Source: an uncultured Chloroflexia bacterium (GTDB lineage: Bacteria > Chloroflexota > Limnocylindria > Limnocylindrales > CSP1-4). Taken from it: DNA of 64,000 nt. The translations under genes and the position numbers were made by a program. The stretch is from the NCBI GenBank assembly GCA_963710105.1, contig CAVPYV010000001.1:2454485-2518484 (forward strand), in the 5' to 3' direction. Below, piece by piece: positions 11,952 through 64,000 of this stretch (positions are counted from its first letter, which is position 1; every line of letters starts with the position of its first letter). The notes below the pieces were generated by a model. That model was not told where the DNA came from and ran no database searches. It worked only from the letters and a program-made list of their open reading frames with translations.

Positions 11952-12524
11952 CGACCCGGCGCGGACGGCACTGGCGGCGCGCGCGATCGAGAGGCTACGT
12001 CGCTGGAACGAGACGGCCGCCGCCGAGCGGTGGCCTGAGTCGGGGCGCAGGCGCGTCATCAGGCGCTGCACGCCGACCGTTGCGTTGAGCAATACGGTCT
12101 CCTGGTTGAAAACCGGACGGTCAGCGCGGGGCTGGGTCAGCGCGTGGGATGGGCGCCTGGGGTCGGGACCGTCCGATGGGTCGCGTCTTCGAGCTGGGGG
12201 ATCTCTGTCCGCGGCCGAGCCCGTGTGTTCACCGGGCTGTCGACTTCGCGTGGAACCGTAACAGACACGTAACGTCGGCGCAAACGAACGGCCACGTGGC
12301 GAGCCCTCCGCCCGTTGGTCGCGCCGGTCGCGGCGCGGGCGGCGGCGCCGGCGATGCAGGGGTGCATCGGATCTCAGGCTGGCGCGCTCCGCGGAGGTCG
12401 CGAATCGTCGATTCGGCGCACTGGCCACGCGAGCGCTGCGCGGAATTGAGTCACGAGCGCATCACCCAAGAACGATGCCGCCATCGTCGCTCCGCCGCAA
12501 CAGCCGCGGACGGCGGCCCCGCTC

Positions 12525-13910: not shown

Positions 13911-14150
13911 GGGCGGGAAGTCCCTCAGGAGAACGAATACGGGAGAGGTGGGCCGCGTCCGGGCTGGGTTCCGCGCGGAATCGCTCCGCTGCGCAGGCCG
14001 GTCTGGGATGCCGGGAATGATACGCGTCGATCCGGCCTGCGTCAATGGCGCCCGACGGGACCGCCGCTTCCCGGCCGGCGCCGCCGACGATGGCACGGAT
14101 CGCTCATCTGAGCAATTGACTCTCATCTGTGCGCCGCCTATGCTCGGACG

Positions 14151-14789
14151 GTGCCCGCGGATCCGCAGCGCCTGCGCTCGAGCGACCTCGCCGATGCCGT
14201 CCGCGAGCGGCGCCTGATCGCCGTCCTCCGCCGGGTCGAGCCTCGCGAGCGGCTCGTCGACCTCGTCGAGGAGCTCATCGCCGACGGTGTCGCCCTTCTC
14301 GAGATCACCCTGGACACGGACGGCGCCGCCGCCGACCTGCGGGCAGTCCGCGACGCCGTCGGGGGTCGAGCCCTGGTCGGGGCCGGCACGATCCGCACGA
14401 CCGGTCAGGTCCGGATGGCGATCGACCACGGCGCGACCTTCGCCGTGAGCCCCGTGTTCGACCGGGACGTCCTCGACGCCGCCATCGAGGCCGGCATGCC
14501 GTTCGTGCCCGGCGCCTACAGCCCGACCGAGATCGACGCCGCCTGGCGTGCCGGCGCGACGTTCGTGAAGCTGTTCCCGGCCTCCTCGCTCGGCCCGAGC
14601 CACGTCCGCGAGCTCCGCGGGCCGCTGCCGTCGATCGAGACGATCGCGACCGGCGGCGTGGATGCCTCGAACGCGATCGCCTTCCTCGAGGCCGGGGCGG
14701 TCGCCGTCGGGATCGGCTCGGCATTCGGCCGGATGGCGGCCGCCGAGCGACGCGCCCTGGTCGCGGCGATCGGGCGGGCCGGCCGATGA
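14151..14789 (+). CDS. eda: 2-dehydro-3-deoxy-phosphogluconate / 4-hydroxy-2-oxoglutarate aldolase (Eda).
   Basis: IAVLRRVEP...ALLEITLDT...VGAGTIRT...FAVSP...GAYSPTEI...FVKLFPA is the typical KDPG aldolase fold. GTG start. Confidence 0.8.
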   Translation: MPADPQRLRSSDLADAVRERRLIAVLRRVEPRERLVDLVEELIADGVALLEITLDTDGAAADLRAVRDAVGGRALVGAGTIRTTGQVRMAIDHGATFAVSPVFDRDVLDAAIEAGMPFVPGAYSPTEIDAAWRAGATFVKLFPASSLGPSHVRELRGPLPSIETIATGGVDASNAIAFLEAGAVAVGIGSAFGRMAAAERRALVAAIGRAGR

Positions 14790-15757
14790 CGACCGAGCGG
14801 GCGGCCGACGCCGGGGCGGGGCGCGACGAGCGCGACGCCCTCGCGAGCCAGGTCGCGCGCCTGTTCTTCGAGCGCCAGCTCACGAAGGTCGAGATCGCCG
14901 GCCGCCTCGGCATCTCGCGCTTCCGGGTCGCCCGGCTGCTCGACCAGGCGCTTGCCGACGGCCTCGTCCGGATCGAGTTCCGCGACACGCCGCCCCGGGA
15001 CCGCGACCTCGCCGGCCGGATCCGGGCGCGCTTCCGCCTCTCGTCCTGCCTGGTCGCTGCCGCCGATGCCGACGAGGCGGCCGTGGCCCGCCTCGGGGCG
15101 GCCGAGCTCGACGGGATCGTCGGGCGGGGCGACGCGATCGGCATCGCCTGGGGGTCGACGATGGCCCGGGTCGTGCGGAGCGTGCCCGCCCGCGACGACG
15201 GCACGATCGACGTGGTCCAGCTGGCGGGCAGCTCGACGAGCCTCGGCGCCGGCACGGACCCCGGCGACCTGGCCCGGATCCTGGCGGAGCGCCTCGGCGG
15301 GCGCCACCACCGGCTCCACGCGCCGGCCTTCGTCGAGTCGAGCCGGCTCCGGGCCGCGCTCCTGCGCCAGCCGGACGTCGCCGCCACCGTCGAACGCTTC
15401 GACGGGCTGGCCGTCGCCCTCCTCGGCATCGGCGCGTTCGGCCGGGCGGACGGGCCGGCCAGCTCCTCGCTCGTGCGGTCGGGCGCGCTCGGACCCGACG
15501 AGGTCGGCCGGCTGGCGGCTCTCGGCGCCGTTGGCGACCTCATCGTCCACCCGTTCACCGCGGACGGCCGCTTCGTCGCACCGGACCTGGCTGAGCGGGC
15601 CATCGCGATCTCGATCGATCAGCTCCGGCGGGTGCCGGCCGTGATCGCCGTCGCGGCCGGACCGGCCAAGGTCGCGGCGATCCGCGGCGCCCTGCAGACC
15701 GGCGTCATCGCCAGCCTCGTGACGGACGCCGCAACCGCCCGGGGGCTCCTCGAGTGA
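14786..15757 (+). CDS. SorC/DeoR-family sugar-binding transcriptional regulator.
   Basis: HTH LTKVEIAGRLGISRFRVARLLDQALADGLVRI, then a SorC sugar-binding domain (IGIAWGSTMARVV...). ATGA overlap with the eda stop. Confidence 0.75.
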   Translation: MTTERAADAGAGRDERDALASQVARLFFERQLTKVEIAGRLGISRFRVARLLDQALADGLVRIEFRDTPPRDRDLAGRIRARFRLSSCLVAAADADEAAVARLGAAELDGIVGRGDAIGIAWGSTMARVVRSVPARDDGTIDVVQLAGSSTSLGAGTDPGDLARILAERLGGRHHRLHAPAFVESSRLRAALLRQPDVAATVERFDGLAVALLGIGAFGRADGPASSSLVRSGALGPDEVGRLAALGAVGDLIVHPFTADGRFVAPDLAERAIAISIDQLRRVPAVIAVAAGPAKVAAIRGALQTGVIASLVTDAATARGLLE

Positions 15758-34320: not shown

Positions 34321-35111
34321 GCATGACCGCCCCGACGCGCAGCCTGCCATGGATCACGGCCGCGGAGGAGATCCTCCGCCAGATCGCCGCGACCCAGGCC
34401 GAGGCGATCGAGACGGCCAGCCAGTGGTCCGCCGACGCGATCGGGTCCGACGGGCTCGTCCACCTCTTCGGGACCGGTCATTCGCGGATCCCGGTCGAGG
34501 AGATGTTCCCGCGCTACGGCTCCTACCCGGGCTTCAACCCGATCGTCGAGCTGTCGATGACCTTCCACACCCAGGTCGTCGGCGCCAACGGCCAGCGCCA
34601 GGCGATGTTCATCGAGCGGATGCCGGGCCTGGCCGAGGTGATCCTGTCGAACTTCACCTTCGGGCCGAAGGACGTGATGATCGTCTTTTCGGCCGGCGGG
34701 ACCACGGCGGTGCCGGTCGAGGTCGCGCGCGGCGCCCGGCGGCGCGGCATGCGCGTCATCGCGGTGACGTCGGTCCAGCAGTCGTCCTCGGCCGAGATCG
34801 ATCCGCTCGTCGGCAGCCGCCTCCTGGACGAGGCCGATCTCGTGATCGACCTGTGCACGCCGCACGCCGACGCCATGGTCGAAGTACCCGGTCTGGACAC
34901 GCCAGTTGGCCCGGGTTCGACCGTCGCGGCCGTGGCTATCGTCAACTCCGTCAAGGTCCGAACCGCCGAGCTCCTCACGGAGCGCGGCGCCATGCCGCCT
35001 GTCCTCACCCGGGCCTCGGTCGTAGGCGCCGAGCGCTCGCAGACCCTCTTCGACGGCGCCTACCGAGAGCACGCGCGGCGGATCGCCCGCGCCATCACGG
35101 GGCAGAGGTGA
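34317..35111 (+). CDS. SIS (sugar isomerase) domain protein.
   Basis: LVHLFGTGHSRIP...IVFSAGGTTAVPVEVAR...RVIAVTS is an SIS-type phosphosugar-binding fold. ATGA overlap at 34317. Confidence 0.65.
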   Translation: MSMTAPTRSLPWITAAEEILRQIAATQAEAIETASQWSADAIGSDGLVHLFGTGHSRIPVEEMFPRYGSYPGFNPIVELSMTFHTQVVGANGQRQAMFIERMPGLAEVILSNFTFGPKDVMIVFSAGGTTAVPVEVARGARRRGMRVIAVTSVQQSSSAEIDPLVGSRLLDEADLVIDLCTPHADAMVEVPGLDTPVGPGSTVAAVAIVNSVKVRTAELLTERGAMPPVLTRASVVGAERSQTLFDGAYREHARRIARAITGQR

Positions 35112-44974: not shown

Positions 44975-45438
44975 AGGTCCGCGGCAGCCGCACGCTCGAG
45001 GCCCCGCGCGACGCGGTGTTCGCCGCGATCCTCGATCCCGAGAGCCTCCTCGGGGTCATCCCCGGCTGCCGCTCGGTCGAGCGGGTCGACGAGACGGAAT
45101 ACCACGCGACCATCGCGCTCCGGCTGCCGGGCATGGTCGGGACGTGGCGGACGGTCGTCCGGGTCGTCGACACGGACCCCCCGTCGTCCGGCGAGATCGA
45201 GGGCGAGCTCACGGGCGCGCTCGGCACGATCACCGGCCGGGCGACGTTCCGGCTGGCCGACAGCGACGGTGGGACCACCGTCGATTACGAGGGCAGCGCC
45301 GTGATCGGCGGCCCCCTGGCCCGGCTCGACTCGCGGTTCGTCGAGGGGCTCGCCGGCTCGCTCGTCGGCCAGGGCCTCGTCAATCTCGATGCGCGCCTCC
45401 GGGAGACGGCGCCGGAGACGGCGAGGGTCCGGGCATGA
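44971..45438 (+). CDS. SRPBCC / CoxG-family protein (accessory to molybdenum hydroxylases).
   Basis: About 155 aa. MKVRGSRTLEAPRDAVFAAILDPESLLGVIPGCRSVE is the CoxG fold. ATGA overlap. Confidence 0.7.
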   Translation: MKVRGSRTLEAPRDAVFAAILDPESLLGVIPGCRSVERVDETEYHATIALRLPGMVGTWRTVVRVVDTDPPSSGEIEGELTGALGTITGRATFRLADSDGGTTVDYEGSAVIGGPLARLDSRFVEGLAGSLVGQGLVNLDARLRETAPETARVRA

Positions 45439-46292
45439 CGGTCCGCGAGTACGCCCTGCCGCGATCCCTCCCGGCGGCCCTCGACCTGCTGGCGACGCGC
45501 GGCCCCGAGCTCCTCGTCATCGCCGGCGGGACGATCGCGATGCCCCTGATCAACGAAGGGCTCTCGCTGCCGGAGGCGGTGATGGGCCTCCGCCATGCCG
45601 GCCTCGGCGGCATCGACCGGGCCGGCGACACGCTCCGGATCGGGGCGACCGCGACGCTGACCGGGCTCCTCGAGCAGGACGCCGTCGAGATGCTCCGCGA
45701 GGCCGCCCGCAACACGGCCGCCTGGTCGGTTCGGAACATGGCCACCGTCGGCGGCAACCTCTTCACCCCGCCGCCGGGCGGCGACGTCGCGGTCGCCCTG
45801 CTGGCCCTCGACGCCACGGTGGCCCTTGCGAGCGCCCGCGGCGAGCGGACGCTGCCGCTGGCCGAGTTCTTCACCGGCTTCCTGACGACGGCCATCGCCG
45901 AGGACGAGCTGCTCGTCGAGATCCGGGTGCCGCTCTCGGGCGCCGCCATCGCCTCGACGGCGTTCCTCAAGCTCGGCCGGAAGCACGCCAACACCCCGTC
46001 GGTCGTGACCGTCGCGGTGCGGCTCGACTGGGAGGGCGCGACCGTCGCCGACGCCCGGATCGCGCTCGGCGCGGTCGGCCCGCATCCGATCCGCGCCCTC
46101 CGGGCCGAGCACCTGCTGCGCGGGACGAGCGTGGACCCTGCGTCGATGGCGGCGGCGGCCGCGGCGGCCGCAGCCGACTGCGAGCCCGCGACCGACGGCA
46201 TCGCCAGCGCCTGGTACCGCCGCCGGATGTGCGAGCTCCAGGTCGGCCGGGCCCTCGAGCGGGCGCGGGACGCCCGGAAGGACGGCGGCTAG
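45435..46292 (+). CDS. Xanthine-dehydrogenase-family FAD-binding (medium) subunit.
   Basis: LLVIAGGTIAMPLIN...ATVGGNLF is a CO-dehydrogenase flavoprotein-type FAD-binding domain. ATGA overlap. Confidence 0.8.
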   Translation: MTVREYALPRSLPAALDLLATRGPELLVIAGGTIAMPLINEGLSLPEAVMGLRHAGLGGIDRAGDTLRIGATATLTGLLEQDAVEMLREAARNTAAWSVRNMATVGGNLFTPPPGGDVAVALLALDATVALASARGERTLPLAEFFTGFLTTAIAEDELLVEIRVPLSGAAIASTAFLKLGRKHANTPSVVTVAVRLDWEGATVADARIALGAVGPHPIRALRAEHLLRGTSVDPASMAAAAAAAAADCEPATDGIASAWYRRRMCELQVGRALERARDARKDGG

Positions 46293-46799
46293 ATGGCATC
46301 GACGATCGTCGCCTTCGAGCTCGGCGGGCGGACCGTCGAGGTCATGGTCCGGCCGCTGACGACGCTCCAGGCGGTCCTCCGGACGCAGCTCGGGCGAACC
46401 GCGGCCAAGGAGGGCTGCCGCCAGGGCGGCTGCGGCAGCTGCACGGTCCTCGTCGACGGCGAGCCGATGCTGTCCTGCCTGCTCCCGGTCGAGGACGTCG
46501 CCGGCCGCCGGGTGACGACGCTCGAGGACCTGACCCCGGCCACCGGCCTCGACCCCCTCCAGCAGGCGTTCCTCGCGGCCAACGCCTTCCAGTGCGGCTA
46601 CTGCACGCCGGGCATGGTGATGATCGCCCGGGCCCTCCTGGATCGCGACCCGACGCCGAGCCGCGAGGACATCGCCATGGCCCTGACCGGCAACCTCTGC
46701 CGCTGCACGGGGTACGAGCCGATCGTCGACGCGATCGAGGCGGCGGCCGCGGCCGACGGCGACGGGGCAGCGACGGCCGACGGCAAGGGGCCGGCATGA
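46293..46799 (+). CDS. (2Fe-2S)-binding small subunit of the molybdenum hydroxylase.
   Basis: CRQGGCGSCTV (plant-type cluster) and CGYCTPG...NLCRCTGY (second cluster). Confidence 0.85.
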   Translation: MASTIVAFELGGRTVEVMVRPLTTLQAVLRTQLGRTAAKEGCRQGGCGSCTVLVDGEPMLSCLLPVEDVAGRRVTTLEDLTPATGLDPLQQAFLAANAFQCGYCTPGMVMIARALLDRDPTPSREDIAMALTGNLCRCTGYEPIVDAIEAAAAADGDGAATADGKGPA

Positions 46800-49211
46800 G
46801 CCCGGACCTCAACGTCGTCGGCCAATCGGTCGAGCGGAGCGACGGGATCGGCCACGTCACCGGGCGGACGATCTACACCGGCGACCGGACGTTCCCGGGG
46901 ATGCTCCACCTGAAGATGGTCAGGAGCCCCGCCCACCACGCCCGGATCCGCGGGATCGACCTGTCCGACGCCGCCCGCGTGCCGGGCTTCGTCCGGGCCC
47001 TGACCGCGGCCGACGTCCCCCACAACCGCTACACGATCCTCGGGCTCATCGGCGTCGAGCCGGAGGAGGAGTTCGTCCTCGCCGAGGACCGCGTCCGCTT
47101 CAAGGGCGAGGCGATCGCGGCGATCGTCGCCGAGACCGAGGAGGCCGCCCTCGAGGCGGTCGCCCGGGTCCGGCTCGACCTCGAGGAGCTGCCCGCGGTC
47201 TTCGACGTCGAGGAGGCCCTGCAGCCGGACGCTCCGATCGTGACCCACTGGGGCAACAACACGTTCATGTACGAGGGCCACCCCTGCCGCCGCGTCCGGC
47301 TCGGCGACGTCGAGGCCGGCTTCGCGGCGGCGGCCCACATCGTCGAGGGGGTCTACAACACGAGCCCGATCGAGCACGCCCCGCTCGAGACGACCGGCTG
47401 CATCGCCGTCCCCGAGGCGAACGGCCGGATGACCGTGTACACGAACACCCAGGCGCTGTACTTCAGCCTCGACAACACCTCGATCATCCTGCAGGTCCCC
47501 GGCAACCGGCTCCACTTCGTCGGCGGCACCGTCGGCGGCGGGTTCGGCGGCAAGGTCGACGTCATCGTCGAGCCGATCGCGACGCTCGCGGCGATGCTCA
47601 CCAACCGCCCGGTGCGCTTCGTCTACAGCCGCTCGGAGGAGATGCAGGTCTCGTCGACCCGGAGCGCGTGGCGGATCCGGGTGAAGGACGGCGTGGCCGC
47701 CGACGGCCGGATCCTCGCCCGCCAGGTCACGAGCTACGCCGACTCCGGCGCGTACAGCCGCCAGACCCCGTACGCGCTGACGAAGCACGCGGCCAACGCC
47801 GCCGGCCCGTACGCGATCCCGAACGTCTCGATCGACGCCTACTGCGTCTACACGAACCGCCAGCCGACGAGCGCGATGCGCGGCTTCGGGATCACGATGG
47901 CGTCGTTCGCGCTCGAGGTCCAGATGGACAAGATCGCCGAGCGGGTCGGCGTCGACCCGTGGACGATCCGCTTCCTCAACGCCTACCGCGACGGCGACCT
48001 GAAGCCGCATCGCAAGCTCGTCGAGGACGCGACCCTGATCGAGACGATGCAGGCGGCGGCGGAGCTCGTCGGGCACGAGCTGCCGGCGGAGCTCCGGGCG
48101 ATGACGTCGGCGCCGCGCGACGGGTCCGGGCCGCGCGACCCGGGTGCCCATCGTCCCCCAAGCCCGCCGGGGGTCGCTGACGATGGCGAAGCTGCGCGGC
48201 ACCGGCATCGCCGCGGTCAACTACCCGACCGGGATGAACCTCGGCGGCGACCCGTCGCAGGCGCTGATCCACGCCACGACGAGCGGCTCGTTCGTGGTGA
48301 CCCTCTCGGCCACGGATCTCGGCCAGGGGCTCCGGACGGTCATCGGCCAGATCGCGGCCGAGGTCATGGGCGTCCCGTTCGAGCAGATCGTCGTCGACAC
48401 CGCCGACACCGACACGGGCCCGCACGACATGGGCACGTTCGCCAGCCGGGCGACCCATCGCGTCGGGAACGCCGTGATCGCCGCGGCGACCGAGGCCCGC
48501 CGGGCCCTCCTCGACGTCGCCGCCGAGGAGCTCGAGGTCCTCGCCTCCGAGCTCGAGACCGACGGCCGCGGCAACCTGATGGTCAAGGGCGTGCCGGCCC
48601 GGTCGCTGAAGATCGCCGACGTTGCCGCGCGCGCCCAGTTCGTCCACGGCCGGACGATCGCCGGGCGCGGCGCCTGGATGAAGCCGCGCAGCGACGTCGA
48701 TCCCGAGACCGGGGCGATGGACCCCGACTCGACCGAGGCCCACGCCTGCACCGTCGCCGAGGTCGAGGTCGACACCGAGACCGGCGAGGTCGCCGTCCTC
48801 AGCATCCGGAGCGCCTACGAGGTCGGCCGCCAGGTGAACCCGGCCCTCGTCCGCGGCCAGATCGTCGGCGGGGCGTGGATGGGCATGTCGCATGCCCTGT
48901 ACGAGACGACGGCGCCGTACTACCCCGACGTCGAGCACACCGCCCGCGACTTCAGCGAGTACCTGATGCCGGGCCCCCTCGAGATGCCCGAGATCGAGTC
49001 GGTCGTCCTCGAGATGCCCTCGTCGAACGGGCCCTACGGGGTCAAGGGCGTCGGCGAGATGACCGCGAACTCGCCGATCCCGGCGATCGTCAACGCGATC
49101 TACCACGCGACCGGCGTCCGGATCGACGAGCTGCCGGTCACCCCGGAGAAGATCCTCCGCGGCCTCGACGCCCTCGCGTCGGCGGCCGCGCCGAACGAGA
49201 CGGAGGCCTGA
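46796..49211 (+). CDS. Xanthine-dehydrogenase-family molybdopterin-binding large subunit. One frame change near 48130-48180.
   Basis: a/b hammerhead; QPTSAMRGFGIT (the AxRGxG Mo-hydroxylase motif, not the CODH VAYRCSFR motif); the MoCo-binding 2 domain (GSFVVTLSATDLGQGLRT...) is in the +2 frame. Confidence 0.8.
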
Positions 49212-51445: not shown

Positions 51446-53122
51446 TCAGGTCACGATGAACCCGACGGCGAGCGACGCCACGGCCACGATCGCGCCGCCG
51501 GCTGACGGCCCGAGGATGGAGCGAGCTGGCGCCTCCGCGGCGGCCGCGATCCAAGCGGATCTGGCCACCACGCCAGCCACCAGCACGACGAGTCCGATGC
51601 TGAAGAGCGACAGCACGCCCAACGGGAGCAAACCGGCACCGGCCGCGGCCGCCGTGGCGATGCGCACGCGGCGGCTCCGCGTCACGGCACCGACGGCGGT
51701 CGTAATGGTCAGCGCCACGAGGAGCGCCAGGACGAACGACTGACGCGAGTCGGGCCCAGGCCAGTCACCCTGCTGCCCGAGCAGGCGAATGTAGCCGATC
51801 GTACTCCCGGCCACGTCGTGCTTGCGACCGCGTGGGACGGGCTCCTGCTCCGCGCCCCGAGAGTCCGCTCTCGGCGCTACGCCCAAGGCGCCGGCAGGTG
51901 CGTGATCGGCTCGTGGTTCGGGCGGACGTCCGGCTGGAGTCGGGTCGGCGGCGGCGACGTAGCGCGGCTCCAGCCCGAGCTCCTTGAGGACGATGTTCCG
52001 GCCCTGCGCGATGCCGGCCGCCTTGAACGACGAGATCGTCCGGTTGAACCCCTGGCGGCCGAAGCCGCAATCGCTCGACAGGATCAGCTTGTCGGCCGGG
52101 ATCACCTCGAGCGCGCGGCGGGCGCGGCCCGCCACCTTCTCCGGGAGATCGGCCTGGAGCTGGCGGTGGCTGACCACGCCGACCGCGATCTTCTTCGACA
52201 GGCTGTTCGCGTACGGCTTGAACAGGTCGATCTGGGCGAGCTCGTTCTCGGTCGCCTCGACCGTCCAGACGTCGCCCTTGAGCCGGTTCAGGTAGATGTC
52301 GATCGAGTTCTCGTACGACTCGCCGCTGTAGACCTTCTGCATGTTCGGGTTGCCCCAGCAGGTGTGGATCCAGAGCTCGACGTCATCGAGCCCCTCGACC
52401 TCGTGGTTGAACGCCTCGACCATGAAGTCGAGCAGCTCGGTCTGCTCGGGGTGGAAGCAGGCCGTGAAGTGGATCGTCGGCTCCTCGATCTGGATCACCT
52501 TCGCGCCGGCGGCGGCAAGCTGGCGGAGCTCCTTGTTCATCGCCGTCGACATGTCCCAGATGAGCTGCTTCTTGTCGTCCTGGTCGTACTCGGACGTGTG
52601 GCTGTCGAGGAAGATCGCGAGGACCTGCGACGAGCACGTCCCGAACTTCACCGGCTTGCCGGACGCCGCGCGGGCCTGGGCGATCCGCCACAGCTTGGCG
52701 TACTCGAGCGGGTTCTTCGGGTCGTGCTCGACCTTGCCGACGACGCGCGGCCAACGCCACGTCGTCTCGATCTCGTTCATCAGCGTGCCGGGCATGAAGT
52801 CGAGGAGCCCGTCGCGCGAGTCGTCGTACTGGAGCTCCTCGTGCTCGAGACCCTTCCATCGCTGGAGCGGGTAGTGATGCCACGAGCGGCCGGCGAAGTC
52901 CTCGTCGAGGTGGTAGTCGCCGTTGGTCAGGATGTCGAGCCCGGCGCGCTCCTGGTCGGCGATGACGGTGGCGTGGGCGTCGAGGAACTGCTCACGGAAG
53001 CGGACGTCGAGGAGGGCCGTATCGAGCGGCCGGCCCCACAGGCCCTGGTCGTACCAGCGCGGCCGCGGCCACGAGCCGGTGACGGTGGCGGGGAGCATCA
53101 GGTCCTTGGTGGCCGTGAGCAT
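51446..53122 (-). CDS. Second stand-alone MetE-C-terminal-like (Meth_synt_2) protein, about 390 aa. It continues in frame into a roughly 110-aa region with 3 predicted TM helices (51446-51800), which may be a separate small membrane protein that has lost its separating stop.
   Basis: ATVTGSWPRPRWY...ILTNGDYHLDEDFAGRSWHHY...VIQIEEPTIHF...IHTCWGNP. The C-terminus is LALLVALTITTAVGAV...LLPLGVLSLFSIGLVVLVAGVV. Confidence 0.65.
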   Translation of the reverse strand: MLTATKDLMLPATVTGSWPRPRWYDQGLWGRPLDTALLDVRFREQFLDAHATVIADQERAGLDILTNGDYHLDEDFAGRSWHHYPLQRWKGLEHEELQYDDSRDGLLDFMPGTLMNEIETTWRWPRVVGKVEHDPKNPLEYAKLWRIAQARAASGKPVKFGTCSSQVLAIFLDSHTSEYDQDDKKQLIWDMSTAMNKELRQLAAAGAKVIQIEEPTIHFTACFHPEQTELLDFMVEAFNHEVEGLDDVELWIHTCWGNPNMQKVYSGESYENSIDIYLNRLKGDVWTVEATENELAQIDLFKPYANSLSKKIAVGVVSHRQLQADLPEKVAGRARRALEVIPADKLILSSDCGFGRQGFNRTISSFKAAGIAQGRNIVLKELGLEPRYVAAADPTPAGRPPEPRADHAPAGALGVAPRADSRGAEQEPVPRGRKHDVAGSTIGYIRLLGQQGDWPGPDSRQSFVLALLVALTITTAVGAVTRSRRVRIATAAAAGAGLLPLGVLSLFSIGLVVLVAGVVARSAWIAAAAEAPARSILGPSAGGAIVAVASLAVGFIVT

Positions 53123-56662: not shown

Positions 56663-58800
56663 CTACGCGCGGCCGGCGGCGACCTCGTCCTCGCGGGTTC
56701 GGCCGGCGAGCTGGATCAGGTCCTCGTGGAGCTCGAACCAGATCCCGTGGTAGCTGTCGACCCGGGGTGAGGCGACGTAGCGGCCGTCACCGCCGAGGGC
56801 GGCCTCGAGCGCGCGGCCGAGCCTGATCCCGTACGCGGCAAGACGCGGACAGCCCGTCTCGACGGGACCGAGCCAGGCCAGCGCGTCGCGCATGGATCGC
56901 GGCCAGGTCGTCCAGCACCGCCTGGTCGTGGTCGGCGTCGGTGTGGTCGTTCGGGACCTGGCCACCCGCGCCGTCGTCGCGGAGCTGCCAGGCGGTGACC
57001 GCGTCCTTGACGCGGTGATCGAGGGCGACGAAGGCATCGAGCGCCGCGCCGGCGGCGTCGATCCCCCACCGCTCCTGCTCGGCGGCGAGGAGCTCCCGGA
57101 CCCGGGCGGTTCCCTCGTCGGTCAGGCGCAGGGCTCCGGCGGTCGTCCCGGTCAGGCCCTCGGCCTGGAGCCGGTCGAGGACCGGCTGGACCGCATCCAG
57201 CGGCGCGAGCACCGCGTCGGCGACGGCCTGCGGCTGGGCGAAGCCCTTGATCCCGATTGCGCGGAGGCAGTCGTCCGGGCTGGCGTCGCGCTCGGTCGCA
57301 GAGGCATCCGTTCGCGGCGGCGCCGCAGTGACGGGCTCGCCGATCGCGATCCCGAGCTCGCGTGACCAGTCGATCAGCGTCCGGGCTTCCGGCACGACCT
57401 CCGTCGTCGCGGCGACCACCCCGGCGAACACCTCGCCCGTGTCGCCGTCGATCGAGATCAGCTCGCCCGCAGCCAGGTCGCGCTCCCCGATCGTCACCCG
57501 GTCGCTGCCGACCTCGACGTCGGTCGCGCCGACCACCGCGGGGATCCCCCAGCCGCGCGCCACGACGGCCGCGTGGCTCGCCAGCCCGCCCCGCGACGTC
57601 AGGATCCCGGCCGCGCGGGCCATGCCATGGACGTCGTCCGGCGACGTCTCCGCCCGGACGAGGATCACGGTCCGCCCGGCCTCCGCGGCCGCCTGCGCCG
57701 CCTCCGGAGAGGTCACGATCTCGCCGCTCGCCATCCCCGGCGAGGCGGGCAGGCCGGTCGTCAGCGGGGTCGCCCGGCCGGCCCCGGCGATCGCCCGCGA
57801 TGGCGGATTCGCGAGGAGCGCCGCCACCCGCGTGACCGCTTCGGCGCGGGTCAGCGGGAAGCCCGGCTCCTCCGCCATGTCGACCGCGATCCGGAGGGCC
57901 GCCTGGGGACTGCGCTTGCCGACCCGGACCTGGAGCATCCAGAGCCGGGCCTCCTCGATCGTGAACTCGATGTCGCAGAGGTCGGCGTAGTGGCGCTCGA
58001 GCCGTGCCGCCGCCGCCCGCAGCTGGGCAGCCACCGCCGGCAGCCGCTCGTCGAGGACGGCGATCGGCTCGGTCCGGTGGGTGCCCGCGACGACGTCCTC
58101 GCCCTGCGCGTCGAACAGGACGTCGCCGTACAGGTCCGGCTCGCCGGTCGCGGGGTTGCGGGTGAACAGGACCCCGGTCGCGGAGTCCGGGCCGCGGTTG
58201 CCGAAGACCATCGCCTGGACCGTCACCGCGGTCCCGAGATCGTCCGGGATCCCCTCCTTCGCCCGGTACGCCCGGGCCCGGTCGCTGTTCCAGGACCGGA
58301 AGACGGCCTCGATGGCGAGCCGCAGCTGGGCCCATGGATCGCCGGGGACATCCGCGCCGCCGACGATCGAGCGGAAGCTCGCCACGAACCGCTCCCGGCA
58401 CGCCCGCGGCGAATGCCGCGCTCCCCGACGCCCGGCCGAGCCCGCCCTCGGTCGCATCGTTCAGGCCGAGGTTCAGGATCGTGTCCATCATCCCCGGCAT
58501 CGAGACCGGCGCGCCCGAGCGGACGCTGACGAGGAGCGGGTCGGCGGGGTCCCCGAAGCGGCGCCCGACGGCCCCCTCGACCGCCGCCATCCGGGTCCGC
58601 AGCTCCTCGTCCAGGCCGGCCGGCCAGCCGCCGGAGAGGAAGGTCCGGCAGGTCGCGGTCGTGATCGCGAACCCGGGCGGGACGGGCAGCCCGAGCTCGC
58701 GGGCCATGACCCCGAGGTTGGCCGCCTTGCCGCCGACGATCGCCTTCGCCTCGGCGAGGGTCGGCGCGACGGGCTCGTCGAGCGCGTAGGTGAGGGTCAT
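56663..58800 (-). CDS. Pyruvate-phosphate-dikinase-like PEP-utilising-family kinase. It has the ATP-grasp nucleotide domain and the swivel phospho-His domain but lacks the PEP/pyruvate TIM-barrel; a roughly 170-aa C-terminal region of unknown function replaces it. One frame change near 58450.
   Basis: KAIVGGKAANLGVMAREL...LLVSVRSGAPVSMPGMMDTILNLGLND (PPDK N-terminus); TAVTVQAMVFGN...GVLFTRNPATGE; GLPASPGMASGEIV...VILVRAETSPDDV...TSRGGLASHAAVVARGWG (swivel His). The ATG at 58798-58800 overlaps the TGA of the upstream gene. Confidence 0.75.
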
Positions 58801-61116
58801 CGGGTCGGGTCCTCCGGCTCGGCGGCCGGCGACGCGTCGCGGATGGCCCGCCAGACGCGCTCCGGGAGTGAGCGGCAGGTCGCGGATGACGGCGCCCGTG
58901 GCATCTCGCACCGCGGCCGCCACCGCCGGCGCGACGCACAGGAGGGCGCCCTCGCTCATCCCCTTCGCGCCGTACGGCCCGGGCCCGTCGCCGTTCTCGA
59001 CGATCTCGCTCTCCATCGAGCGCGGCAGGTCCATGCTCGTCGGGATCCGGTAGTCGATCGCGCCGAGGTTCCGGATCCGGCCGCCCTCGTCGAGGATGTA
59101 GTGCTCCATCAGGGTGTGCCCGAGGCCCATGACCGCGGCGCCCTCGTCCTGGCCCCGGACCTGGGCCGGGTTCAGCGCCCGGCCGACGTCCGAGACGGTC
59201 ACGTGGCGGGCGACGACCACGTCGCCGGTGGCGCGATCGACCTCGACCTCGACAGCGGTGCAGTTGAACTCGTAGAACGCGGCCGTCCCGCCGAGGGGGT
59301 GGTCCGGCTCGGCCTCCTTGCGCATCTCGCCGAGCCCGATGACCTCGCCGCCGAGCCGGCCGAGGCCGCGGGCGAGGACGTCGCGGATCGGCCACGCCCG
59401 CTCGCCGATCCGGACCTCGCCGCGGTCCACGACGATCCCGGACTCGTCGACGCCCTCGAGCCGGGCGGCCATCGTCCGGAGCTTCGCCTGGATGTCGCGG
59501 CAGGCGAGGAGGACGGCGTTGCCCATCAGGACCGACGACCGGCTGGCCGACGTCTGCTGGTCGTACGGGACGACCGCGGTGTCGCCCATGACGACGGTCA
59601 CCCAGTCGAGCGGCGCGCCGAGCTCCTGGGCCGCGATCTGGGCGAAGATCGTCCGGGCGCCCTGGCCCATGTCCGAGGTGCCGGCGAAGACGACGACGCT
59701 GCCGTCGGCGAGGAGCCGGACGGTCGAGTAGCTGAGCCCGGTCGTCGGCCCTTCCTTGAGCCCGACGGCGATCCCCCGCCCGCGGCCGGCCGGCGCCGGC
59801 GTCCCCCAGCCGATCCGCTCCGCGGCCCGGCGGAGGCTCTCCGCCCAGTGCCCGTCGGCCGGCGTGTCGCCGGGGAGGAAGGCGTCGCCGGTGTCCGCGA
59901 GGTTGCGCAGGCGCAGCTCGACCGGGTCGATGCCGAGGACTCCCGCGGCCTCGTTCATGTTCGACTCGACCGCCCAGATCTGCTGGGGGTTGCCGAAGCC
60001 GCGGAAGGCGGTCGAGGGCACGGTGTGCGACAGGACGCTCCGGGCGACGATCCGGACGGCCGGCGTCCGGTACGGCCCGTTCGAGGTGTAGCTGCCCTTG
60101 GCCACGGTCCGGTCGGCGATGTCGGCGTACGCCCCGATCAGGTAGTTCGCCTCGATGTCGCGGAAGACGAGCGCGCCGTCGCGGCGGAAGCCGGACCGGA
60201 CGCGGACCTCGGCCGCGCCGCGGCGGACGGCCTGGAACGTCTCCTCGAGGGTCAGGACGAGGCGGACCGGTCGGCCGGCTCGGCGGGCCATGAACGCGAG
60301 GAGCGGCTCGTACTTCGCGTGCTGCTTGCCGCCGAACGCGCCGCCCGGGTCGGGGGCGAGGATCCGCACCCGGGCGAGCGGCAGCTCGAGGAGCGAGGCG
60401 ATCACCCGCTGCAGCCAGTTCGGATGCTGGATCGAGCTCCAGACGGCGATCCCGTCGCCGTCGGGCGCGGCCATGAAGGCGTGCGGCTCGATCGCGAACT
60501 GGGTGACCATCGGGAACGTGTACGCCCCCTCGACGACGACCTCGGCGTCCGCCTCGGCGCGGGCGAGGTCGCCCCAGCCGTAGCGGTGCTCGCGGAGGAC
60601 GTTCGTGCCGGCCAGCGGGTCGCCCGGCCGGAGCGCCGGGTCCTGGACGAGCGGGCTGTCCGGGGCGAGCGCCGCGGCGATCGAGGTGCTCGCCGGCAGC
60701 TCGTCGTAGTCGACGCGGACGAGCGCGGCGGCCTCCTCGGCGGCGTCCTTCGTCTCGGCCGCGACGGCCGCCACCGGGTCGCCGTCGTAGGCCGTCTCGC
60801 CGACCGCGAGCACGGGCCGGTCGCGGAACTGCGGGCCGAAGCGGGGCATCGGGTCGGGCAGGTCCGCCGCGGTCATCACGAGGCGGACGCCCGGCACGCG
60901 GAGGGCGGCGCTGCTGTCGATGGATCGGATCCGGGCCCGGGCGCACGGCACCGTGACGAGCTTGACGTGGAGGACGTCCTCGAGGCGGAGGTCGGCGACG
61001 TAGGCCTGGCGGCCGGTGACCCGGGCCCGGCCGCCGACGCGCGCCGGCGAGGCGCCGACGACGGAGCCGTCCATGGGGTCCGGGCCGCCCGCAGCGCGGT
61101 CGCGCGCCGCGGTCAT
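58797..61116 (-). CDS. Xanthine-dehydrogenase-family molybdopterin-binding large subunit (second paralog). The C-terminus is probably frame-shifted: the native stop is the TGA in the ATGA overlap at 58797-58799, whereas the six-frame ORF reads on into the dikinase-like gene.
   Basis: RVTGRQAYVADL hammerhead; TAFRGFGNPQQIWAVES (canonical XDH motif); GQGARTIFAQIAAQELG...GDTAVVPYDQQTSASRS. Confidence 0.8.
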
Positions 61117-61681
61117 TGCGGCGCCACGCGGGCGTCGGGGGTCGCCGCCGGGTCGGTGGCGGGCGGCTCAACGGGGCGCCGCCGAGGGCGGGCTCGACGT
61201 CGGCATCGGGCGCCTCCGCCGCCAGGAGGACGGCCTCGATGATCTGCTCGTAGCCGCCGCAGCGGCAGAGGTTCCCGGCCAGCCCCTCCTCGACCTCGGC
61301 CCGGGTCGGGTGCGGCGTCGTCGCGAGGAGCGCCCGCGCGGCGACGAGCTGGCCGGGGATGCAGAACCCGCACTGCGCCGCGCCCGTGTCGAGGAACGCC
61401 TGCTGGAGCGGATGGAGGCGGTCGCCGGACGCCAGGCCCTCGACCGTGGTGATCGCGGCGCCGTCGACCTCGACCGCGAGGACCAGGCACGAGTCGACGC
61501 TCACGTCGTCGACGAGGACGGTGCAGGCGCCGCACTCGCCGACGAGGCAGCACTCCTTCGTGCCGGTCAGGTCCAGGTCGTCGCGGAGGACCTCGAGGAG
61601 GGTGTGGTGGGCGGCCACGTCGAGCGAGCGAGGGCGGCCGTTGACGGTGAGCTCGATCCGGACGGTGGCCGTCGACGTCAT
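61113..61681 (-). CDS. (2Fe-2S)-binding small subunit (second paralog). One frame change near its C-terminus.
   Basis: ECCLVGECGACTV...CGFCIPG...NLCRCGGY. The stop TGA overlaps the large-subunit ATG (ATGA) only in the +2 frame (ORF 61113..61724). Confidence 0.8.
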
Positions 61682-62544
61682 CGCGGATCCCCTCCGAGGC
61701 GGGCGAGCGCCGTCGCGATCGCACGGAGGCCGAGGACGTGGAGCATCGCGAGGCGGTACTCGGGGCTCGCCCGCATCGAGCGCGGCGACGGGCTGGCGTC
61801 GACGAACAGCGCCTCGAGCCGCTCCATCTTCGCGGCCTCGGGCGCCGCCGGATCGGCGAGGACGCCGGTGTCGTCGGTCACGAGGAGCGGACGCGGGCCG
61901 AGGCTGCCGTAGGCCAGCCGCGTCACGCCGCCGGGCCGGATCGCGCAGGCCAGGGTGACCGAGGCGAGGTCGTGGCCGCGCCGCCGCGTCCGGCGGACAT
62001 GGACCGACCCGACCGGCCCGGCCGGCAGGGGCAGCTCGATCGCGGTGACGAGCTCGTCGGCGGCCAGCGTCGTGACGCCGGACCGGACGAACACCTCGTC
62101 GATCGGGATCCGCCGGGTCCCGGCGGGGCCACTGGTGACGACGGTCGCGTCGTGGACGAGGAGGGCCGGTGCCGTGTCCGCGGCGGGCGAGGCGTTGCAG
62201 ATGTTGCCCGCGAGCGTCGCCCGGTTCCGGATCTGGACCGAGCCGACGACCGCCGCGGCCTCGGCCAGGCCCCGGAAGTGGCGCCGGACGCGCTCGTCGG
62301 CGGCGATGTCCGTCATCACCGTCGCCGCCCCGATCGAGAGGCGCCCGTCGCGCTCGGCGATCGCCCCGTCGAGCTCGGCGATCCGCTTGACGTCGACGAC
62401 GACGCGCGGCCGGATCGTGCCGTCGCGGAGGCGGATGATCAGGTCCGTCCCGCCGGCCAGCAGCCGGGCGTCCGGGCCGTGCTCCACGAGCAGGCCGATC
62501 GCGTCGGCGAGGCGGGTCGGCCGCTCGTAGCTGAAGGCGCGCAT
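61678..62544 (-). CDS. Xanthine-dehydrogenase-family FAD-binding subunit (second paralog).
   Basis: ARLLAGGTDLII...ATLAGNICNASPAAD is the CoxM/XdhB-type FAD domain. ATGA overlap with the small-subunit start. Confidence 0.8.
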   Translation of the reverse strand: MRAFSYERPTRLADAIGLLVEHGPDARLLAGGTDLIIRLRDGTIRPRVVVDVKRIAELDGAIAERDGRLSIGAATVMTDIAADERVRRHFRGLAEAAAVVGSVQIRNRATLAGNICNASPAADTAPALLVHDATVVTSGPAGTRRIPIDEVFVRSGVTTLAADELVTAIELPLPAGPVGSVHVRRTRRRGHDLASVTLACAIRPGGVTRLAYGSLGPRPLLVTDDTGVLADPAAPEAAKMERLEALFVDASPSPRSMRASPEYRLAMLHVLGLRAIATALARLGGDPR

Positions 62545-62554
62545 CGGCCGGGCC

Positions 62555-63442
62555 CTAGAGGACCCGATCGACCTCGTCGAGGAGGACCTGCGGCGTCGCC
62601 GCCCGGATGAAGTAGAAGGGCCGCTCGGCGAAGCGCCGGACGAAGTCGGTCCGGGCCGCCCGGAGCTCGTCGGTGTCGACGATCGGCATCGCGATCCCCG
62701 GCGCCAGGAGCTCGTTGAGGAGGAAGTAGCCCTGGACCGAGTGGAACGCCTGGAACTGGCGCTCGAACGGGATCATCGGGGCGCACGCCGGGTCGAAGTT
62801 GCCGTCGATCGCGGGGACGACGACGACATCGACGAGGCTGGGCTCGCTGTGGACCTCCCACGTCGGCATCTCGTGGAAGAACTTCTCGACGCCCCGCTCG
62901 GGGGCGGCCTTGTCGGCGCGCTCGGTGCCCTCGGTCCGCTTCTTCAGGAACGACTGCTTCGACCCGACCACCGCCACGCCGCCGTCGTCGATCACGGTCG
63001 TCTCGGTCGAGACGAGGCGCGCGCCGCGGCGGCAGGCCTCGATCTGGCCCATCGACTTGCCGTGGTTCGACTCGCCGCCGAGGAACAGGACGGTCCGGTC
63101 GCGATAGCGGACGGCGGAGGCGTGGAACGGGTGGAGCCCGACCGCCTCCATCCGCAGGGCGAGGAGCGTGACGACGACCTTCTGGATCGGGCCGGCCGGC
63201 CAGGCGCCGCCGAACAGCATCCGCCGCCCGTCGTACGAGATCCCCCGATCCGCGTCGCGATCCCAGATGACGTCGGGCTCCGGGAGGCTGACCTGCAGCG
63301 CGATCCGGACGTCGGCCAGGCGGTAGTTCAGGAAGCTCATGTCGTCGAGGACGTGGTCGATCGGCTCGCCGCCCCGGACGTCGATCCGGAGCCGGGCCGG
63401 GCCGGCGGACAGCTCCTCGGAGAGCTGGAGTCTGGTGATCAT
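62555..63442 (-). CDS. HPr-kinase/phosphorylase C-terminal-domain-like P-loop protein (HprK-related kinase-like). It is the first gene of the Mo-hydroxylase operon.
   Basis: HASAVRYRDRTVLFLGGESNHGKSMGQIEACRRGARLVSTETTVID matches the HprK C-domain pattern (HASAV...G.SG.GKS...G..L.sDD.v.i) with Walker A GESNHGKS. GGAAGGA Shine-Dalgarno upstream of 63442. Confidence 0.6.
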   Translation of the reverse strand: MITRLQLSEELSAGPARLRIDVRGGEPIDHVLDDMSFLNYRLADVRIALQVSLPEPDVIWDRDADRGISYDGRRMLFGGAWPAGPIQKVVVTLLALRMEAVGLHPFHASAVRYRDRTVLFLGGESNHGKSMGQIEACRRGARLVSTETTVIDDGGVAVVGSKQSFLKKRTEGTERADKAAPERGVEKFFHEMPTWEVHSEPSLVDVVVVPAIDGNFDPACAPMIPFERQFQAFHSVQGYFLLNELLAPGIAMPIVDTDELRAARTDFVRRFAERPFYFIRAATPQVLLDEVDRVL

Positions 63443-63467
63443 CGGGTCCTTCCCGGCGCTCGGCGGC

Positions 63468-64000
63468 TCACGCGTCGGGTGCCTCGTCGACGGGCCAGCG
63501 GGCGGCCATGTCGGCGCGCACCTGGTCGAAATGGCGGCGGAGGGCCTCGACGACCGCGTCGCCGTCGCGCCGCTCGAGGGCCGCGAGGATCGGGCCGTGG
63601 AGGTCGGCCGACCACGCCAGGTCGGCGCCCGGGACGCTCAGGGTGAGGTACGTCCGGGAGAACGGCTCGAGGGATCGCCAGACCTTCTCGAGCATCCCGT
63701 TGTCGGCGGCCTGGACGATCCGCTCGTGGAAGCGGGCGTCGGCCGCGGCGACGGCGTGGCCATCGGCGTGCTCGGCCGCGGCGCGCATCGCCGCCAGCGC
63801 CTCGGCGAGGTCCCGGAGGTCCGCATCGGACAGGCGGGTCGCCGCGAGCCCGGCCCCGAACGCCTCGATCGCCGATCGGACGGCGTAGGCCTCGATGACC
63901 TCGCGCCGCGACGGGCGGCGAACGCGCGCCCCGCGGAACGGCAGGATCTCGACGACGCCGAGCGCCTCCAGGCCGCGCAGCGCCTCGCGGACCGGGGCCT
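63468..64000 (-). CDS. GntR-family (FadR/FCD) transcriptional regulator. It is truncated by the window edge; the N-terminal HTH lies beyond 64000.
   Basis: PVREALRGLEALGVVEILPFRGARV (end of the wHTH), then an FCD domain ...FHERIVQAADNGMLEKVWRSL... The stop is at 63468-63470. Confidence 0.7.
   Translation of the reverse strand, partial: APVREALRGLEALGVVEILPFRGARVRRPSRREVIEAYAVRSAIEAFGAGLAATRLSDADLRDLAEALAAMRAAAEHADGHAVAAADARFHERIVQAADNGMLEKVWRSLEPFSRTYLTLSVPGADLAWSADLHGPILAALERRDGDAVVEALRRHFDQVRADMAARWPVDEAPDA

Follow-up and report, generated by a model that had tools for sequence, protein, structure and literature searches.

A conserved Limnocylindria operon that combines a molybdenum hydroxylase, a VadK-like short PPDK and a predicted HprK/PEPCK-fold protein

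Introduction

The 3hpd cluster of Ensifer adhaerens HP1 encodes the 3-hydroxypyridine dehydrogenase HpdA1A2A3A4 together with a pyruvate, phosphate dikinase (PPDK; orf9), a phosphoenolpyruvate (PEP)-utilizing protein (orf10), and a GntR regulator (orf7) (bioRxiv 10.1101/2020.01.08.898148). In the same study, HpdA, a member of the xanthine dehydrogenase (XDH) family, converted 3-hydroxypyridine only when orf9 and orf10 were present; a phosphorylated intermediate was not detected, and the role of orf9 and orf10 was left unexplained. Here we describe an operon of similar gene content on the minus strand at positions 56663-64000 of a 64,000-nt stretch of contig CAVPYV010000001.1, from an uncultured Chloroflexota bacterium of the Limnocylindria (the whole stretch is referred to as the window). 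We tentatively read this region, with a little less than even confidence, as the Limnocylindria version of a conserved catabolic module, in which a multi-component dikinase and a molybdenum hydroxylase act on one small substrate under a GntR/FCD repressor.

Two further groups of proteins are relevant to the operon. In the catabolic HpeHI system, a dikinase phosphorylates a phenolic hydroxyl group; the kinase HpeHI acts first, followed by a carboxylase and then by the phosphatase HpeD. CreHI and phenylphosphate synthase are homologues of HpeHI. By homology, HpeI is the ATP-grasp component, and HpeH carries the swivel and substrate domains of rifampicin phosphotransferase (Rph). The second group is represented by VadK (Rv1127c) of Mycobacterium tuberculosis, a truncated PPDK that undergoes ATP- and Mg-dependent autophosphorylation at His422. 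VadK was reported to be a regulatory histidine kinase that binds enzymes acting in the methylcitrate cycle, and its solubility is raised by its operonic partner, Rv1126c.

Results

Layout of the operon

Proteins of the window were scanned against Pfam and NCBIfam. The open reading frame (ORF) list and the domain scans accounted for all ORFs of the region and resolved six minus-strand genes, which are given below in the direction of transcription together with the sites discussed in the text.

63468..64000, minus strand: GntR/FCD transcription regulator (Pfam FCD, E 7e-28, plus the end of the GntR HTH); its 5' end (~48 codons) lies past the window edge, and its identity to the 234-aa orthologue of locus L002 is 71% over residues 49-219 of the latter
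62555..63442, minus strand: 295-aa P-loop protein of predicted HprK/PEPCK fold, from an uncharacterised family, carrying LFLGGESNHGKS
63053..63076, minus strand: Walker-A motif G123-E-S-N-H-G-K-S130 of the HprK-like protein
61678..62544, minus strand: FAD-binding medium subunit, XDH family (Pfam FAD_binding_5, E 4e-48, and CO_deh_flav_C)
61113..61681, minus strand: 2Fe-2S small subunit (Pfam Fer2_2, E 3e-30, and Fer2); conserved part 61211-61681, with 85% identity to the L002 orthologue over 61211-61672
58797..61116, minus strand: molybdopterin large subunit, XDH-family hydroxylase (Pfam Ald_Xan_dh_C, MoCoBD_1, and MoCoBD_2), with the TAFRGFGNPQ motif
56663..58800, minus strand: VadK-like short PPDK (ATP-grasp and swivel-His domains; Pfam PPDK_N and PEP-utilizers) fused to a winged helix-turn-helix (wHTH)/four-helix bundle; stop codon 56663-56665
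57573..57575, minus strand: codon of the catalytic His of the swivel domain, within GGLASHAAVVARG, as read from the sequence
56666..57275, minus strand: putative MarR-like winged helix and four-helix bundle, the Rv1126c-like partner domain, with the invariant motif VASPRVDSYHGIWFELHEDLI...AAGRA at its end

The GntR gene and the HprK-like ORF are separated by 25 bp, and the HprK-like ORF and the FAD gene by 10 bp. This gene order and both gaps, as well as the ATGA strings, TAFRGFGNPQ, LFLGGESNHGKS, and GGLASHAAVVARG, lie where an initial annotation, made from the window sequence, had placed them. That annotation had described clean, ATGA-coupled genes; the in-frame ATGA overlap between the FAD and 2Fe-2S genes is present as sequenced, but the couplings of the 2Fe-2S to the Mo gene and of the Mo to the PPDK-like gene are valid only with a single-base correction. 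Consensus scans for promoters and terminators found nothing inside the operon and are uninformative at the ~75% GC content of this genome.

Conservation of the gene set

The HprK-like family occurs in 459 species genomes. Synteny was surveyed in the best 80 of these, all of which are Limnocylindria-type Chloroflexota and close relatives of one another. In nearly all 80, the gene order is (TAL-like)-PpsA-like-GntR-HprK-like-FAD-FeS-Mo-PPDK-like, where TAL-like denotes a transaldolase-family gene, and the few rearranged Limnocylindria versions retain every part. Stronger evidence of linkage than these 80 genomes is provided by distant members of the HprK-like family, at 35-56% identity. In the Gaiellaceae (L091), genes for a PpsA-like protein, a GntR/FCD regulator, a cyclase, a PPDK_N-only protein, and an HprK-like protein are convergent with TAL-like, Mo, FeS, and FAD genes. 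In a Nitrososphaerales archaeon, the PpsA-like gene lies inside the FAD-FeS-Mo operon, and SCP2, HprK-like, and PPDK_N-only genes are divergent from this operon. In Thermococcus sibiricus and its relatives, PPDK_N-only, cyclase, HprK-like, and PpsA-like genes surround two genes for tungsten enzymes of the AFOR family, with no XDH. In addition, a subsurface contig carries an IPMS-like gene, a PpsA-like gene followed directly by the HprK-like gene, a cupin gene, and a cyclase gene, and in a 2-kb contig PPDK_N adjoins the HprK-like gene. The set HprK-like, PpsA-like, ATP-grasp, and Mo or W oxidoreductase thus recurs in Limnocylindria, Gaiellaceae, Nitrososphaerales, and Thermococcus. With the order kept in nearly all 80 genomes and the component set in four distant lineages, chance is far from sufficient to explain the arrangement.

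That an ordinary gluconeogenic PPDK lies next to an unrelated XDH operon by coincidence is effectively excluded. NCBIfam model NF004531 would indeed name the dikinase 'pyruvate, phosphate dikinase', but the PEP/pyruvate domain is missing in all orthologues, and the linkage survives rearrangements and spans phyla and domains. Both features on which the initial annotation had staked its reading were found: the neighbourhood search recovered co-occurrence of the set, with gene order conserved in other genomes, and the dikinase gene does not run on into a PEP-binding domain.

Directly upstream of the GntR gene, the orthologous loci contain a gene of ~600 aa with a domain of the Rph_4th type followed up by a further swivel domain (PEP-utilizers), the second of the cluster, i.e., the PpsA/HpeH architecture. 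Every relative examined encodes such a PpsA/HpeH-like protein beside the set. In the window, this position falls past base 64000, and the rest of the window contains no PpsA-like gene; judging from the orthologous loci, we infer that the gene lies upstream of the GntR gene in the source genome as well. The PpsA-like proteins of these lineages are 36-61% identical over their full length. An HpeH-type protein aligns with them only over the C-terminal half, at ~32%. Since full-length alignment is thus confined to their own orthologues, across domains of life, the PpsA-like proteins of these clusters appear by sequence to be a distinct subfamily.

The ATP-grasp partner differs between lineages. 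In Gaiellaceae, Nitrososphaerales, Thermococcus, and Thermomicrobium roseum, it is of the PpsB/HpeI type, without a swivel or wHTH domain. No PpsB-type ATP-grasp gene was found within +-10 kb in the Limnocylindria loci, which leaves the VadK-like protein as the only candidate there; it has probably taken over the ATP-grasp role in Limnocylindria.

T. roseum is itself a member of the Chloroflexota; its megaplasmid NC_011961 (L095, 47303-72952) carries an orthologous cluster in the order GntR-cyclase-PPDK_N-(DUF4202)-FAD-FAH-ABM-PpsA-like-Mo-FeS, with no HprK-like gene. An ABC transporter of the branched-chain type is also encoded at this locus, along with Tm-1-like and PEP-hydrolase-like proteins. 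The T. sibiricus locus (L090; CP001463, 1466195-1487085) contains a polyferredoxin gene with the two AFOR genes, together with genes for DUF169, an IPMS-like synthase, a cupin, an Ldh-like dehydrogenase, and UPF0261; a literature search found no published description of this cluster.

Several other neighbours were observed. The TAL-like gene lies beside the cluster in many Limnocylindria and in Gaiellaceae (L002, 6298-7401; L091, 10908-12035); at 104-120 bits it falls well short of the 367-bit cut-off, which makes a housekeeping transaldolase improbable. A cyclase-like gene with 27-30% identity to that of the Gaiellaceae lies downstream of the Mo gene in L043, L031, L070, and L058 (near 12100-15500). 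In L043 and L031 it is placed between the Mo and PPDK-like genes, and in L058 and L070 the PPDK-like gene is elsewhere in the locus. A SIS_2 sugar-isomerase-domain gene of the window (34350-35102, plus strand) has 68% identity to one that L001 and L002 carry a few kb upstream of the cluster; in the source genome it lies ~20 kb away on the other side of the operon, which indicates that the neighbourhood has been rearranged.

Frame breaks in the operon

The raw sequence contains four single-base frame breaks within ~5.5 kb: one in the 2Fe-2S tail, one in the Mo tail, and two in the PPDK-like gene. They were located with the ORF list, tblastn of intact orthologues, and three-frame reading (61100-61260 for the 2Fe-2S tail). 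The 2Fe-2S frame meets its first in-frame stop at 58223. Owing to an extra C near 58866, the Mo frame runs on into the PPDK-like gene; the corrected frame reads LTPERVWRAIRDA...TR*, with its stop inside the ATGA at 58797-58800. Single-base insertions near 58432-58445 and 56887-56889 break the PPDK-like gene into three frames, across which intact orthologues of 710-713 aa cover it at 70-78% identity in tblastn.

Taken at face value, these breaks would mean that the operon is decaying and that the PPDK-like, Mo, and FeS genes are pseudogenes in the source organism. Four disruptions in so short a region fit such decay. However, comparable breaks occur in an unrelated MetE-like gene (~51940) and in the Mo subunit gene of a second XDH operon (48088-48195) of the window, and split matches are frequent in related loci from long-read 'MFD' metagenome-assembled genomes (MAGs). 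Moreover, indels aside, the coding sequence is 70-85% identical to intact orthologues and free of in-frame stops, and the HprK-like and FAD genes are uninterrupted. Decay is therefore very improbable. Because the orthologues are intact and similar breaks are present in unrelated window genes and in the MFD MAG loci, we read the breaks, on this sequence comparison, as long-read assembly errors and not as pseudogenisation: the operon is genuine and strongly conserved, and was sequenced with indel errors.

The second three-subunit XDH-family operon (FAD, 2Fe-2S, Mo; window 45435-49199, plus strand) is ~31-47% identical to the one studied here, and its Mo subunit is split between two frames around 48088-48195. 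The MetE-like (Meth_synt_2) gene (window 51883-53122, minus strand) is 87% identical to the syntenic L002 gene; the break near 51940 joins it to a long spurious tail, giving a 558-aa ORF at 51446-53122.

The molybdenum hydroxylase

The FAD, 2x[2Fe-2S], and Mo-pterin subunits all have canonical Pfam domains. Among solved structures, the closest Mo large subunit is the alpha subunit of 4-hydroxybenzoyl-CoA reductase (4-HBCR; E 5e-94, 319 bits vs. 224 for the next), followed by quinoline 2-oxidoreductase and XDH (E ~1e-64). All NCBIfam XDH equivalogs scored under their cut-offs (e.g., 420 vs. 780). The active site was compared by residue-level alignment with 1jro_B and 1rm6_A, the aligned positions being given in bovine numbering. 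The equivalents of Gln767 (SSIQHP, Mo=O-binding), Phe914 (AFRGFGNPQ), and the catalytic Glu1261 (GMSEGAL) are kept. The equivalent of Glu802 is Gln (GGKQ), and that of Arg880 is Lys (VAKGS). The initial annotation of a three-subunit Mo hydroxylase is borne out, and these two substitutions set this XDH-family enzyme apart from xanthine dehydrogenases proper. The FAD subunit (288 aa) is collinear with the 287-aa CutM and has only two Cys, and its match to 1rm6_B ends at residue 118. Collinearity with CutM and the presence of only two Cys indicate that the [4Fe-4S] loop of the 4-HBCR type is absent.

The similarity to 4-HBCR raises the question of a reductive role, in which the Mo enzyme would work like 4-HBCR or the tungsten enzymes BamB/AOR, and the kinases would convert a hydroxyl or carboxyl group to a phosphate leaving group that is removed reductively. 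The wide margin by which 4-HBCR alpha is the nearest solved Mo subunit speaks for this possibility, as does the fact that the partner enzymes in Thermococcus are tungsten AFORs, a family that catalyses low-potential reductions. On the other hand, the FAD subunit has no [4Fe-4S] insertion, the element that defines the inverted electron flow of 4-HBCR, the MRGHG of 4-HBCR is replaced in the Mo subunit by AFRGFGNPQ, a motif of the hydroxylase type, and most reports of Limnocylindria come from oxic soils and waters. We regard a reductive role as improbable. By its sequence features, the Mo enzyme is best classified as a hydroxylase-type member of the XDH family, distinct both from xanthine dehydrogenase and from 4-HBCR.

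The PPDK-like protein and its C-terminal domain

The PPDK-like protein is much nearer to PPDK than to PEP synthase or Rph, with 398 bits to PPDK 1ggo over residues 1-480, and its closest solved structure comprises residues 1-528 of canonical PPDK. The match to the canonical PPDK profile (TIGR01828) stops at position 525/865. An intact orthologue scored 494.4 bits (cut-off 456) on NF004531, the short mycobacterial PPDK; the largest frame piece of the window gene alone scored 366.8. As the initial annotation had proposed, the PEP/pyruvate TIM-barrel is found neither in the window gene nor in the intact 710-713-aa orthologues, which have PPDK_N and PEP-utilizers only. The His motif GGLASHAAVV matches the autophosphorylation site of VadK at His422 (G-A-A-S-H-A-A-V-V). 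The 'truncated PPDK' of the operon is accordingly placed in the VadK/Rv1127c family of short PPDKs, as a derivative of true PPDK.

The C-terminal extension, put at ~170 aa in the initial annotation, is ~230 aa including the linker. By fold it is MarR-like, with a wHTH and a four-helix bundle, and it is homologous to free-standing partner proteins of ~200 aa, some relatives of which are annotated as MarR regulators. On these homologies, it appears to be the usual partner of short PPDKs in fused form and not an Rph-like substrate domain. The earlier assignment of the whole protein to the Rph/phenylphosphate synthase architecture has to be replaced by the VadK/Rv1127c type; in the relatives, the Rph-like substrate domain is encoded by the separate PpsA-like gene, which would lie past the window end here. 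From the gene pairs of Mycobacterium avium and Diaphorobacter, we infer that Rv1126c may also belong to the wHTH/four-helix family.

In alignment A3, the PPDK-like protein is nearly invariant over its final ~40 residues (VASPRVDSYHGIWFELHEDLIQLAGR.R..E.AAGRA; window 56666-56800, minus strand), which include two invariant His. A third invariant His lies in NDH.D, and the motif is common to the free-standing homologues. Plasmids of Diaphorobacter and M. avium (L096, 8299-13099; L097, 7365-13620) carry a related four-gene module of a short PPDK, a ~200-aa wHTH/four-helix protein, a PpsA-like protein, and a ~300-aa DUF7065 protein, the last of which occupies the place of the HprK-like gene.

The relationship to VadK suggests a regulatory alternative, in which the VadK-like/wHTH fusion and the HprK-like protein are regulators and not catalysts. 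The VadK-like protein would be a histidine kinase that autophosphorylates and either binds and tunes the Mo enzyme or the PpsA-like protein, or binds DNA via its MarR-like domain, and the HprK-like protein would be a protein kinase/phosphorylase of the PDRP or HprK/P kind acting on a swivel domain. The reported function of VadK, the MarR-like fold with its annotated relatives, and the protein kinase/phosphorylase activity of HprK/P, which has the nearest fold, are consistent with this alternative. Three observations argue against it. The equivalent protein in Gaiellaceae, Nitrososphaerales, and Thermococcus is a plain PpsB/HpeI ATP-grasp, the type of the catalytic partner in HpeHI. The target site of PDRP is the Thr two residues before the swivel His; Ala occupies this position in the PPDK-like protein, and regulation of the PDRP kind was put aside for this reason. 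Finally, the operon already has a dedicated GntR/FCD regulator. We consider the regulatory alternative unlikely, though less so than the other alternatives weighed here.

The HprK-like protein

The HprK-like ORF had no Pfam match at E<=0.01 and no NCBIfam family (NCBIfam HprK-related, E 0.067), and an orthologue scored 13 bits (E 0.073) on Pfam PF07475 Hpr_kinase_C, below the cut-off of 33.3. The predicted model of the 295-aa protein is closest to HPr kinase and to phosphoenolpyruvate carboxykinase (PEPCK), and suggests the PEPCK-like P-loop fold of the HprK/P C-terminal domain. The motif G123-E-S-N-H-G-K-S130 fits the HprK/P pattern G-[DE]-S-x-x-G-K-S; compared with the stricter Walker A form G-[DE]-S-G-x-G-K-S, it is matched except that the fourth position is Asn, not Gly. 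Residues G123, E124, N126, G128, and K129 are invariant in alignment A2, which includes bacteria and archaea. The earlier designation as an HprK C-domain-like protein therefore holds for the fold and the Walker A motif but not for the Pfam profile.

The family is small: 185 representatives at 50% identity, most of them fragments, were found at E<=1e-3 among 1.84 billion proteins. Across the Limnocylindria class, the protein is ~80% identical, a conservation equal to that of the adjacent redox subunits. Apparent fusions among the representatives (P0123, P0243, and others) were dismissed as artefacts of read-through into the adjacent FCD or FAD gene. The called genes of five locus types included neither PTS-HPr nor EI, and tblastn against all PLSDB plasmids gave no match. 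The 205-aa hypothetical protein of the T. roseum cluster and a 304-aa protein of Diaphorobacter were considered as HprK-like candidates and rejected (hhalign probability <1%); they are DUF4202 and DUF7065 proteins, respectively. Since the orthologous PpsA-like/PPDK_N/cyclase/XDH cluster of T. roseum lacks the HprK-like gene, the protein appears, from this comparison of gene content, to be a recurrent accessory and not an obligatory part. A literature search found nothing relevant joining HPr kinase to XDH and PPDK, or HPr kinase to phenylphosphate synthase. The HprK-like member is a new element of systems that combine a Mo hydroxylase with a dikinase.

Discussion

If the catabolic-module reading is correct, the reaction sequence could be as follows. 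The PPDK-like ATP-grasp domain would charge a swivel His from ATP, and the PpsA-like subunit would then pass the phosphoryl group to the substrate, by analogy with HpeHI, CreHI, and phenylphosphate synthase. The Mo enzyme would hydroxylate the phosphorylated, or otherwise dikinase-dependent, substrate, as in 3hpd. The HprK-like protein may carry out a further phosphoryl transfer, for which we favour a reaction that takes the phosphate off or recycles it to ADP or Pi by HprK/P- or PEPCK-type chemistry, because no conventional phosphatase is conserved in the cluster and both structural relatives are reversible: HprK/P and PEPCK can run their phosphoryl-transfer reactions in either direction. This role of the HprK-like protein is a conjecture drawn from analogy and deserves much less confidence than the module as a whole. 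The substrate is probably a hydroxylated (hetero)aromatic compound or an enolisable organic acid. The context fits a transported organic acid or N-heterocycle, because the regulator is of the FCD type and the relatives carry genes for branched-chain-type ABC transporters, cyclase/arylformamidase-like proteins, FAH, cupin, and ABM proteins.

The initial annotation had also proposed a shared substrate for the dikinase and the Mo hydroxylase, an idea for which the Ensifer 3hpd cluster provides a genetic precedent. Its order of hydroxylation and then phosphorylation is not indicated, as the known analogues phosphorylate first. Its statement that no characterised pathway has this gene combination holds for the HprK-like member; the combination of Mo enzyme and dikinase has been published as 3hpd.

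Several points weigh against the catabolic-module reading. No ring-cleavage or downstream pathway genes are conserved nearby, and the PpsA-like gene is not in the window itself. The presence of two swivel-His domains, in the VadK-like and PpsA-like proteins, would require a hypothetical His-to-His relay. The sole biochemical study of the VadK family describes a regulatory, not a catalytic, kinase, and the T. roseum cluster would make the HprK-like protein an accessory. In addition, the recurring neighbours of the C-C lyase/synthase kind (divergent TAL-like, IPMS-like) are as compatible with an aliphatic oxo- or hydroxy-acid as with an aromatic compound.

A bolder possibility, which we consider rather doubtful, is that the HprK-like protein, the PpsA-like protein, and the ATP-grasp His~P donor constitute an undescribed phosphoryl relay linking ATP with the redox chemistry of Mo- or W-pterin enzymes; transient phosphorylation would open the substrate to attack by the pterin enzyme, and the HprK-like protein would recover the phosphoryl group as ATP or PPi. 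Such a relay, if true, would account for the occurrence of the same kinase set with XDH-family enzymes in aerobes and with tungsten AFORs in Thermococcus, and would offer a mechanism for the dikinase dependence of 3-hydroxypyridine dehydrogenase.

Why a Mo hydroxylase needs an ATP-dependent dikinase is the question left by the work on 3hpd. The module indicates that this coupling is ancient and widespread, as it spans soil Chloroflexota, Actinomycetota, Nitrososphaerales, and Thermococcus, and that tungsten enzymes can replace molybdenum ones. Three groups of proteins, moreover, gain a first genomic context from the module: the unnamed HprK/PEPCK-fold family, the VadK-type truncated PPDKs, and their small wHTH/helical partners. 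VadK is a virulence factor in M. tuberculosis. T. sibiricus and T. roseum are cultured, which makes the question accessible to experiment. Limnocylindria are abundant in soils, and the substrate may matter for carbon and nitrogen turnover.

Comparison with known systems

Judged by the gene content of the window and the orthologous loci taken together, the operon shares with 3hpd an XDH-family Mo hydroxylase, an ATP-grasp 'PPDK', a PEP-utilizing swivel gene, and a GntR regulator. The fourth, SRPBCC subunit (HpdA3) and the adjacent maleamate-pathway genes are features of 3hpd; no SRPBCC subunit or maleamate-pathway domains were found among the called genes of L001-L003. The operon differs further in that its ATP-grasp protein is VadK-type, with its own swivel and wHTH fusion, and in the presence of the HprK-like gene. 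The 3hpd cluster of Gaiella occulta was considered as a counterpart of the Gaiellaceae locus L091 and rejected, as the former is, according to the supplement, a compact cluster that includes hpdA3 and hpdB-E; the two are different loci.

With HpeHI, CreHI, and PpsAB(C), the orthologous loci share, through their PpsA-like gene, a subunit with an Rph-like substrate domain and a swivel His, separate from the ATP-grasp protein and encoded within catabolic clusters. Phosphorylation before the next step and later removal of the phosphate are features of those systems. In contrast to them, the partner chemistry here is Mo or W redox and not carboxylation or P450 oxidation, no HAD/NagD-type phosphatase is conserved, and an HprK-like protein is found instead of the CBS-type PpsC.

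The likeness to VadK/Rv1126c consists of a PPDK cut off after the swivel domain, the A-S-H-A-A-V-V motif, and a ~200-aa partner alongside. Unlike in M. tuberculosis, where VadK regulates the methylcitrate cycle, the partner is fused here, and the gene belongs to a Mo-hydroxylase operon near a PpsA-like gene (in the relatives). Compared with HprK/P and PEPCK, the HprK-like protein has a different N-terminal domain, is much smaller than PEPCK, and occurs in loci without HPr/PTS genes. With 4-HBCR (HcrABC, PDB 1rm6), the Mo enzyme shares the three-subunit layout; beyond the missing [4Fe-4S] loop and the AFRGFG motif, it differs from this nearest solved relative of its Mo subunit by a Lys in place of Tyr326.

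In summary, the operon belongs to a known kind, a catabolic Mo hydroxylase assisted by a PEP-synthase-type dikinase, and what is new in it is the HprK/PEPCK-fold family, linked to these kinases and to Mo or W enzymes in bacteria and archaea alike, the presence of a second protein with a swivel His, and the fusion of a VadK-type PPDK with its wHTH partner.

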